Sequence record: OR532834.1
Length of the DNA stretch: 50,973 bases
Reading direction: 5' to 3' (one strand)
Source of the DNA: Klebsiella phage RCIP0040
A program made the position numbers and the translations under genes. Below the pieces are notes generated by a model that was given only the letters and a program-made list of their open reading frames with translations, was not told where the DNA came from and did no database searches. How positions within the stretch are numbered: position 1 is the stretch's first letter; the number at the start of each line of letters is the position of its first letter. Positions 24,770-25,256 of this stretch are shown piece after piece.

Positions 24770-25008
24770 TCCGTTTGTTGTTTCGTTGCGTTAAGTATAC
24801 GCATCACGATTCCAGGCGCAAGGCAAAAAGTGCTATTCGCCAACTGGTCAAAAAATGAGCGAAATTTACGTAAGATTTAGTAAGATGCATCTTACTTGAT
24901 TTTCTTTATATATTTCATTGAGTTAACCCAAATCGGTAAGATGGTAAGATGCCTATAGGTAAATATTCACAGAAAAATTTGAGCGGAATCGCAAAGCAAA
25001 ATACATAT

Positions 25009-25098
25009 ACCCGGAGAAAATCTTACCTACACAGATAGATAGAGAGAGGGTAATAATAATAATATAGTTAGATATCATATACTTATATATATTCTATG
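25009..25098. repeat. AT-rich ~85-bp element, inverted copy of 41915-42035
   Basis: Direct reading. Left copy: CCCGGAGAAAATCTTACCTACACAGATAGATAGAGAGAGGGTAATAATAATAATAT...ATCATATACTTATATATATTCTAT. The reverse complement of 41915-42035 gives CCGGGAGAAATCTTACCAAACATATATAGATAGAGAGAGTAATAATAATAATAT...ATCATATACTTATATATCTAT. Confidence 0.8.
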
Positions 25099-25256
25099 GT
25101 GCGATATTGGTTAAAAAATGAGCGAAATTTACGTAAGATTCATCTTACCTAATCTTACTTAAAGTGGTCGACCAGTTGGCAAGTTGCTGAATTTTGAGCA
25201 TAAAAAAAGGTAAGACTGAAATTATCAATCTTACCTAAAATTTGTTCACGTTTTAA

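Follow-up and report, generated by a model that had tools for sequence, protein, structure and literature searches.

Klebsiella phage RCIP0040 (OR532834.1) is analyzed here over a stretch of 50,973 nt (the window), to which all coordinates refer unless a contig is named, and the records that match it class it as a T1-like phage of the genus Webervirus, family Drexlerviridae. Between the genes for DNA primase and exonuclease VIII lies an AT-rich non-coding spacer (GC content 22–40%), which is downstream of the primase gene and upstream of the exoVIII-erf-ssb operon, with everything transcribed leftwards. This spacer, here termed module R1, carries an array of sites related to the word GGTAAGAT, and a second array occurs in a distant control region, here termed module R2 (Table 1). 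The spacer and its flanks have matches in 345 phage records, 339 of them Klebsiella phages, with a best identity of 98.7% (to vB_KpnS_LHC_ER2 and PhiKpNIH-2), and the spacer itself is kept in 342 of the 345 records, nearly all from Klebsiella phages.

The site arrays and their conservation

The exact word GGTAAGAT occurs nine times in the window against an expectation of 1.0, a count reached in none of 100 shuffles, and five of the copies are in the spacer (24935, 24943, 25020, 25142, and 25228). In the relaxed form nGTAAGAy, with any first base and T or C as the last, the spacer contains 11 sites (24869+, 24879+, 24889-, 24935+, 24943+, 25020-, 25132+, 25142-, 25152-, 25209+, and 25228-) spanning 367 bp (24869–25235), in agreement with the roughly 11 copies counted in an earlier reading of the letters alone (the original prediction). 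R2 holds four to six, where further copies had likewise been predicted: 41904-, 42015+, 42121-, and 42167+, with weaker variants at 42113- and 42176-. A scan allowing one mismatch gave 11 sites at 24869–25235 and four at 41904–42174. The shorter word GTAAGAT is present 19 times (4.0 expected). No other 7-mer in the whole window is as clustered: 10 copies fall within 450 bp, and 14 of the 19 are inside the two regions, which total 745 bp (binomial p 5.5e-27). The comparison of motif frequency with expectation, proposed as a check on the original prediction, thus comes out in its favor.

Most sites are single, in tandem (8 bp apart), or phased at 10 bp. The predicted dyads and direct repeat are present with small shifts in position: the perfect 16-bp palindrome is at 24880–24895 (not 24878–24893), the second dyad, GTAAGATTCATCTTACC, is at 25133–25149 (not about 25131–25148), and both copies of the 33-bp repeat were found, the second at 25108–25140 (not 25109–25141). 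The third predicted dyad is a long-spaced inverted pair, GGTAAGACTGAAATTATCAATCTTACC, at 25209–25235, which forms the primase terminator hairpin with its T-run. A rigid dimer seated on dyads, as a strict form of the dimeric protein originally proposed, is not required by this geometry, and the inverted pairs of the related phage K62PH164C2 have spacers of 1, 2, and 3 bp; judged from these layouts, the functional unit looks like an asymmetric site, roughly TTTAGGTAAGATT. The 7-2-7 dyad is unable to form an RNA hairpin because its loop would be too short, and a non-coding RNA reading was dropped after Rfam searches of both regions gave no hit with E ≤ 1. Beyond Webervirus-type contigs, a scan of IMG/VR for the dyad returned isolated single matches only.

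Conservation was assessed in 20 distinct Webervirus R1 spacers obtained from IMG/VR and GenBank, which are 79–99% identical to the window. Invariant positions make up 97% of the motif; the corresponding shares are 57% in the remainder of the spacer and 69% in the flanking coding DNA (Mann-Whitney p 1e-11). Across 20 Webervirus R2 sequences, the 41904 and 42015 sites are invariant and the 42121 site is nearly so. The array is also present in K62PH164C2, whose primase is only ∼64% identical, and in two metagenomic relatives, L319 and L320. By these alignments, the sites are under purifying selection.

R1 also has three copies, all oriented alike, of another conserved box, TGAGCG(A/G)AAT (24856–24865, 24980–24989 as TGAGCGGAAT, and 25119–25128), at distances of 124 and 139 bp. 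The box is found in the K62PH164C2 modules as well (L004:5317–5326) and may be bound by a second factor. A third small group of sites was noted at 8533–8590 (GGTAAGAT, AGGTAAG on the minus strand, and AGTAAGAT), at the end of the tail-terminator gene and upstream of the major tail protein gene. It was rejected as a genuine third cluster, as phage KLPPOU149 has the first (coding) site only and K62PH164C2 has none, and it probably reflects chance plus coding constraint. Additionally, GTAAGAT was rejected as a phage-specific −10 or late-promoter element: the sites are confined to the two regions, where they occur in both orientations, and intergenic regions of the structural genes have none.

Paralogous modules with AT-rich cores

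A 119-nt inverted repeat joins 25031–25149 to 41894–42012, and the alignment of R1 (reverse strand) with R2, to which the corresponding regions of two relatives were added, extends over ∼300 columns. The alignment identifies R1 and R2 as whole paralogous modules of ∼330 bp each, in inverted orientation and 16.7 kb apart. Each module begins with a site cluster, followed by the box AATTTCGCTCAAAWTTT, an AT-rich core (ATAAGTATATGATA...ATTATTATTATTAC, then TCTCTCTATCTAT), and a single site (S0) adjoining the core; beyond this come ∼70–100 bp of variable DNA, tandem sites 8–9 bp apart on the other strand, ∼45 bp, a dyad or triplet, and an outward promoter. Seven modules from five phages, orthologous and paralogous, retain this order of sites together with their orientation and approximate spacing. 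The distances from the tandem pair to S0 are 77 and 85 bp in window R1 and in the KLPPOU149 and L320 modules, and 67/75 or 97/106 bp in the remaining modules. Enrichment, near-invariance in the 20 Webervirus spacers, and positions kept in the seven modules all support the original description of multi-site arrays of operator or iteron type.

When the 80-bp duplex windows of the genome are ranked by instability, the core of R2 comes first and that of R1 second, and the next best window, outside the modules, has a z of 3.7. The same pairing, with the two cores as the two least stable windows, is found in K62PH164C2, K50_evo25, NBD2, and T1; across these five lineages, including the window phage, core instability has a z of 4.8–6.3, and the next best window is at ≤3.7. 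In TLS, the R1 core is the least stable window in the stretch analyzed, with R2 lying outside that stretch. The R2 core contains, in addition, a perfect 18-bp palindrome, AATAATAATATTATTATT, at 41971–41988. In the gene orders seen, one module is always upstream of recE and the other is in the divergent early region.

Table 1. Positions of the modules, sites, and associated genes in the 50,973-nt window.
Feature	Coordinates	Strand	Evidence or remark
Exonuclease VIII gene	23714–24769	-	Annotation of matching records
Outward promoter region of exonuclease VIII-Erf-SSB operon	24794–24838	-	One 21-nt repeat copy (AATAGCACTTTTTGCCTT...) and TATACT −10-like hexamer
Module R1 (whole primase-to-exonuclease VIII spacer)	24845–25256	- (5'→3' = transcription direction)	11 nGTAAGAy sites, fixed layout
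33-bp direct repeat, copy 1	24845–24877	+	Repeat family D15
Site triplet A (> > <)	24869–24896	.	Contains perfect 16-bp palindrome GTAAGATGCATCTTAC at 24880–24895
Tandem pair GGTAAGATGGTAAGAT, 8-bp spacing	24935–24950	+	Exact copies; conservation
AT-rich core of R1: (TAA)n, ATCATATACTTAT, GATAGATAGAGAGAG	25017–25097	.	dG −82.5, z 4.9
Single site S0 (GGTAAGAT), adjoins AT-rich core	25020–25027	-	Invariant; same place in all seven modules compared
33-bp direct repeat, copy 2	25108–25140	+	97% identical to copy 1; holds box TGAGCGAAAT at 25119–25128
Site triplet B (> < <, 10-bp steps)	25132–25159	.	Contains 7-2-7 dyad GTAAGATTCATCTTAC at 25133–25148
Inverted pair 25209+/25228-, stem of primase terminator hairpin	25208–25236	-	Terminator scan; nearly invariant in 20 Webervirus spacers
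DNA primase gene	25257–26219	-	Annotation of matching records
Cro-fold helix-turn-helix protein, 133 aa	26295–26696	-	Always just upstream of primase gene
DUF3987 AAA+ helicase, 522 aa	35216–36784	-	Pfam residues 79–424
Module R2, paralogue of R1 in inverted orientation	41860–42204	+	Inside large divergent early control region
R2 left site ATCTTACC	41904–41911	-	Invariant in 20 Webervirus R2 sequences
AT-rich core of R2	41934–42014	.	dG −77.3, z 5.7; least stable 80-bp window of genome
R2 site S0 GGTAAGAT, adjoins core	42015–42022	+	Invariant
R2 tandem pair: AGTAAGCA variant and GGTAAGAT	42113–42128	-	Conservation, module comparison
Rightward early promoter TTGACG-17-TAAGAT	42146–42183	+	−10 inside site 42167–42174; faces rightward early genes
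Small terminase	50359–50964

The word that flanks the cores is specific to the phage lineage. GTAAGAT is the flanking word of the Webervirus clade and is carried by Webervirus, K62PH164C2, L319, and L320. In T1 the word is TGTAACA (six copies in its two modules and none elsewhere), Rtp-like contigs have AGTTACA or GTGTATA, Erwinia phage Snitter and, weakly, NBD2 have TATAACA, and K50_evo25 and the TLS-like phages have weak A-rich words. Several of these are alike (GTAAGA, GTAACA, and ATAACA). K50_evo25 infects Klebsiella yet is without GTAAGAT; the motif therefore follows the phage lineage, and not simply the host. The two K50_evo25 modules (L007:27240–27480 and L007:6085–6335) have the word CTGCGGAG(G/T)C on both sides, ∼230 bp apart, an element unlike that of Webervirus.

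The tetranucleotide GATC is absent from 24770–25256 and from 41640–42204, compared with a genome average of 5.6 GATC per kb, and a Dam-type methyltransferase is encoded by the phage at 29582–30313.

Transcription signals and the early control region

One inverted pair of sites and one further site are also parts of recognizable transcription signals. The terminator hairpin at the primase end of R1 begins ∼20 nt past the primase stop and has a 12-pair stem with four G-C pairs, a 5-nt loop, and then a minus-strand T-run (tail TTTTTTTATGC); a rho-independent terminator is annotated at this hairpin in the KpV522 and PhiKpNIH-2 records. In R2, the copy originally predicted at 42165–42182 corresponds to the site at 42167, which doubles as the −10 of the TTGACG-17-TAAGAT promoter and is followed by a weak inverted partner, GTAAGGC, at about 42176–42183. 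The TTGACG −35 does not vary, in contrast to the AG of the −10/site, which differs among relatives; 42167–42174 therefore behaves as a promoter element first.

The copy of the 21-nt repeat in the exonuclease VIII operon promoter region belongs to a repeat of the Drexlerviridae that was described for TLS (aaATAGCACnnnTTGnTAAAA) and whose function is listed as an open question (PMC11447400). In the window this repeat (AATAGCACnnnTTGnTAAAAC) has at least 15 copies, each facing the direction of transcription and followed ∼22 nt later by a TATAGT-like hexamer. They are located at 29222–29242, 30543–30563, 43048–43068, 43335–43355, 43902–43922, 45060–45080, 46530–46550, 47321–47341, and 48143–48163 on the plus strand, and at 5470–5491, 37786–37807, 39359–39380, 40239–40260, about 24817–24838, and about 41622–41642 on the minus strand. 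The repeat is conserved across genera (e.g., NBD2 L005:601–621). Like the GGTAAGAT array, it is a conserved intergenic repeat of the same family, and one copy stands at the promoter end of R1; unlike it, GGTAAGAT is restricted to the two modules, occurs in both orientations, and is lineage-specific.

To the left of R2, the stretch 41640–41860 has conserved repeats of its own: GGAATAGTGGAATAG (41672–41686), a TGATT run (41700–41750), and the palindrome-rich TGCAACGAATTGCATAGATGCATGCACCATGCACAT (41789–41823). The divergent early region of T1 contains the genome end, or pac site (T1 terminal repeat annotation), and a weak alignment places this end at ∼41750 in the window, some 110 bp to the left of R2. 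The phage studied here therefore probably has its pac site within 41640–41860.

Elsewhere in the genome, GC content falls to ∼0.40 at 19000–22400, compared with ∼0.51 genome-wide. This interval covers a 907-aa tail fiber gene (19682–22405, minus strand), which suggests a horizontally exchanged receptor-binding or depolymerase gene.

Candidate binders and explanations for the modules

The binder is probably a single sequence-specific DNA-binding protein encoded by the phage. The helix-turn-helix (HTH) protein encoded beside the primase, which the original prediction had put forward for this role, is family-specific and confined to Drexlerviridae-like contigs. Its structural model (predicted local distance difference test, pLDDT, 87) has a Cro-like all-alpha core with Xfaso-1 and N15 Cro as best fold matches, which is at odds with the earlier statement that this phage has no recognizable repressor. 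Variation within the protein is greatest in the HTH segment. Four different recognition helices are found in phages that share GTAAGAT (SIQVVQQW, TYQALQNW, THQLIQQW, and SYQVLESW), and the helix of Snitter, SIQVVSEW, is the closest to that of Webervirus, yet Snitter has TATAACA arrays. On these comparisons the HTH protein is disfavored as the binder, because variation in its recognition helix is not matched by variation in the motif. No nGTAAGAy site is present in the divergent promoter region between the HTH and helicase genes (26697–26784). The extensions on either side of the HTH segment, N-terminal (DKRTLNGNNGT.RG.DKK.RK) and C-terminal (RASFCRPDLRFDSNGKP..RC..RE.LRVV), are strongly conserved. 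A 70-aa early protein (45135–45347), which is 81% identical in K62PH164C2, was also rejected as the binder: only 89 Klebsiella phage records contain it, compared with ∼339 that have the spacer, and it occurs in T4-like Krischvirus as well.

By inference only, the DUF3987 helicase is a better candidate binder than the HTH protein. In its AF2 model (pLDDT 88), residues 446–521 at the C-terminal end form an H-S-H-H-S-S winged helix, and the best fold matches are MCM2-7 subunits (eukaryotic and archaeal MCM). A helicase with a C-terminal winged helix is the architecture of origin-recognizing proteins, such as pRN1 ORF904 and the P4 alpha initiator, a primase/helicase with a C-terminal winged-helix DNA-binding domain (PMC2777425). 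The loop preceding the predicted recognition helix has residues specific to the GTAAGAT clade, a pattern that is inseparable from phylogeny. An MCM-like replicative helicase is unexpected in a T1-like phage, and a separate superfamily 2 (SF2) helicase is encoded at 26717–28822.

The interpretation that we favor, tentatively and at a little under even chances, is that the GGTAAGAT arrays are iterons which, together with an unwinding element, mark two origin-like modules. We infer that a protein binds the sites, who that binder is, and that the modules have origin function, as follows. One sequence-specific protein would occupy the GGTAAGAT copies in both modules, and the modules would be the replication origins of the phage, or one origin together with another cis-acting region for replication. 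Once bound, the protein would melt the AT-rich core and let in the phage helicase and primase. Because the inverted pair forms a terminator stem and one site forms a promoter −10, occupancy of the sites would affect transcription too. Origins are typically described as iterons plus an AT-rich unwinding region (PMC2777425). The window has a cluster of repeated short binding-type motifs, an AT-rich unwinding-type element adjoins the sites in the window and in four other Drexlerviridae lineages, and R1 adjoins the primase gene in the window.

Several observations weigh against an origin function. Both modules are directly upstream of outward promoters, which would fit a purely transcriptional role equally well. 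When gene order differs, R1 stays with the recE operon and not with the primase: in T1, TLS, NBD2, K50_evo25, and Snitter it is upstream of recE and several kb from the primase gene. The sites flank the core on both sides and in both orientations, and one-sided, same-orientation, helically phased repeats were not found (local spacings are 8 and 10 bp), whereas the classic iterons of plasmids and lambda are one-sided direct arrays. P4 and oriC-type origins tolerate mixed site orientations. In other genera the flanking arrays are much weaker, at three to five copies. Neither region contains a DnaA box or an IHF consensus, GC skew, which goes with gene orientation, adds no independent evidence for an origin, and in the winged helix of the helicase only a loop neighboring the recognition helix (H3) follows the motif, H3 itself showing no obvious correspondence with it.

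A possible, less probable alternative is that these are transcriptional operator or enhancer arrays, through which a phage regulator co-regulates the promoters of exoVIII-erf-ssb (at R1) and of the rightward early operon (at R2), perhaps with R1-R2 looping in the manner of lambda OL/OR and with the core as an UP-element or bending region. The outward promoter at the end of each module, the site that serves as the −10 of TTGACG-17-TAAGAT, and the position of R1 upstream of recE in every gene order seen are all in keeping with it, and DNA binding at the terminator stem, which is made of two sites, could modulate read-through from the primase gene. Against this, only one of the ∼15 sites overlaps a recognizable promoter element, and most are 60–400 bp upstream of the promoters and symmetric about the core. 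The sole recognizable regulator does not co-vary with the motif and, with no site at 26697–26784, shows no visible autoregulation. Furthermore, operators would leave unexplained why the cores are the two global stability minima in five lineages. A resemblance to lambda OL/OR is apparent in two paralogous, inverted site clusters that each stand beside an outward early promoter, with a Cro-fold protein encoded between them. Two perfect or near-perfect 7-2-7 dyads are present, but promoter overlap is limited to the 42167 site. Unlike in lambda, the sites are mostly asymmetric, are far more numerous, and extend over ∼330 bp around an AT-rich core, and the specificity of the Cro-like protein does not track the motif, with one motif accompanying four helices and the Snitter helix accompanying another. 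The origin and transcriptional-control readings are not mutually exclusive.

The comparison with regulator sites of Enterobacteriaceae that the original prediction had called for gave a partial fit. The published RcsB homodimer box of Enterobacterales is TN(G/A)GAN4TC(T/C)NA, of which RcsB reads mainly AGA (PMC7913699), and TAAGATGCATCTTA (24881–24894) and TAAGATTCATCTTA (25134–25147), within the two 7-2-7 dyads, match it exactly. The dyads might then be RcsB or RcsAB boxes by which a phage of capsulated Klebsiella senses or titrates a capsule/envelope-stress regulator. We consider this very unlikely: the box is not enriched (three matches in the window, 2.15 expected, with 38 of 100 shuffles reaching three), it accounts for four of the ∼15 sites and leaves 11 that are outside its geometry (single, 8-bp tandem, or 10-bp-phased), and the 1- and 3-bp spacers in K62PH164C2 break it. 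Nor does it explain the invariance of G1, T2, and T7, as conservation reaches bases that RcsB does not read, and K50_evo25, also a Klebsiella phage, lacks the motif. The 7-2-7 heptamers of NarL and the direct repeats of CpxR or OmpR fit in neither orientation nor sequence.

Terminase small subunits often bind repeated motifs, and the sites could belong to packaging or DNA architecture, as targets of the small terminase or a DNA-condensing protein connected with the nearby pac site. R2 is indeed ∼110–150 bp from where the T1 genome end aligns, albeit weakly. Such a role is nonetheless highly improbable, given that R1 has no known packaging role and that the pac-like block (∼41750–41825), with its TGATT and GGAATAG repeats, is distinct from the module and absent from R1. 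Least probable of all is that the arrays are functionless, either a residue of slippage or local duplication in non-coding, AT-rich sequence or a duplicated element of the selfish kind; R1 does include an internal 33-bp duplication, and the modules are themselves a duplication, but this view is contradicted by the difference in invariance between motif and spacer, by an architecture kept in phages whose primases are so divergent, and by paired cores kept in five lineages.

Returning to the origin-like reading, two known replicons offer parallels. The ori and crr of P4 share an ∼8-bp motif in both orientations (type I iterons, recognized by the alpha protein) and are two separated cis regions of one small replicon. 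The phage examined here likewise has a short motif, in both orientations, in two separated regions; additionally, the annotation of the T1 primase notes similarity to P4-type alpha proteins, and the primase of the window carries the primase-helicase zinc ribbon PF08273. Unlike P4 alpha, primase and helicase are separate genes here, and the DUF3987 helicase best matches MCM subunits, with no direct match to P4 alpha shown. The motif is also unrelated to that of P4, and here whole paralogous modules are involved, inverted and 16.7 kb apart. The second parallel is with SPP1, a virulent pac-type siphophage of Bacillus, in which the homologous oriL and oriR are far apart and have initiator boxes beside an AT-rich segment. 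R1 and R2 resemble this arrangement in being two distant homologous regions with repeated boxes next to AT-rich DNA. The likeness is one of layout: no homologue of the SPP1 initiator, loader, or helicase occurs in this phage, and both modules are intergenic, whereas in SPP1 one origin falls within the gene for the initiator.

A broader and more doubtful proposal, which we regard as possible at most, would extend the origin-like reading to the family. Both modules would be Drexlerviridae origins, with the lineage words (GTAAGA in the Webervirus clade, GTAACA in T1 and Rtp-like phages, and ATAACA in Snitter and NBD2) as iterons read by the winged-helix tail of the DUF3987 protein; this MCM-like protein and a separate P4-alpha-like primase would together make a split initiator, and the sites, serving also as terminator stem and promoter −10, would couple initiation to early transcription next to pac.

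The kind of element described here, a binding-site array beside an AT-rich segment, is well known. No description of these particular arrays or of the paired cores came up in the literature when the motif, intergenic repeats of Webervirus, and an origin of T1 were searched for. An origin has been looked for in T1-like phages, and none was found (PMC11447400; PMC7718038). For T1, a classic phage of Delbrück, no account of early regulation was found in the literature either. Klebsiella phages of the genus Webervirus are among those isolated most often. The paired cores, candidate cis elements that occur across the family as global minima of duplex stability, provide precise targets for a question still listed as unresolved for the family, and the Webervirus clade, with its unusually clear 8-bp recognition word, lends itself to a pull-down of the binder. 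The obvious and probably wrong candidate, the “transcriptional regulator” beside the primase, is taken out of play. If the modules are origins, they would account for ∼0.5 kb of conserved non-coding DNA that genome annotations leave blank and would define what engineered or minimized therapeutic phages must keep.

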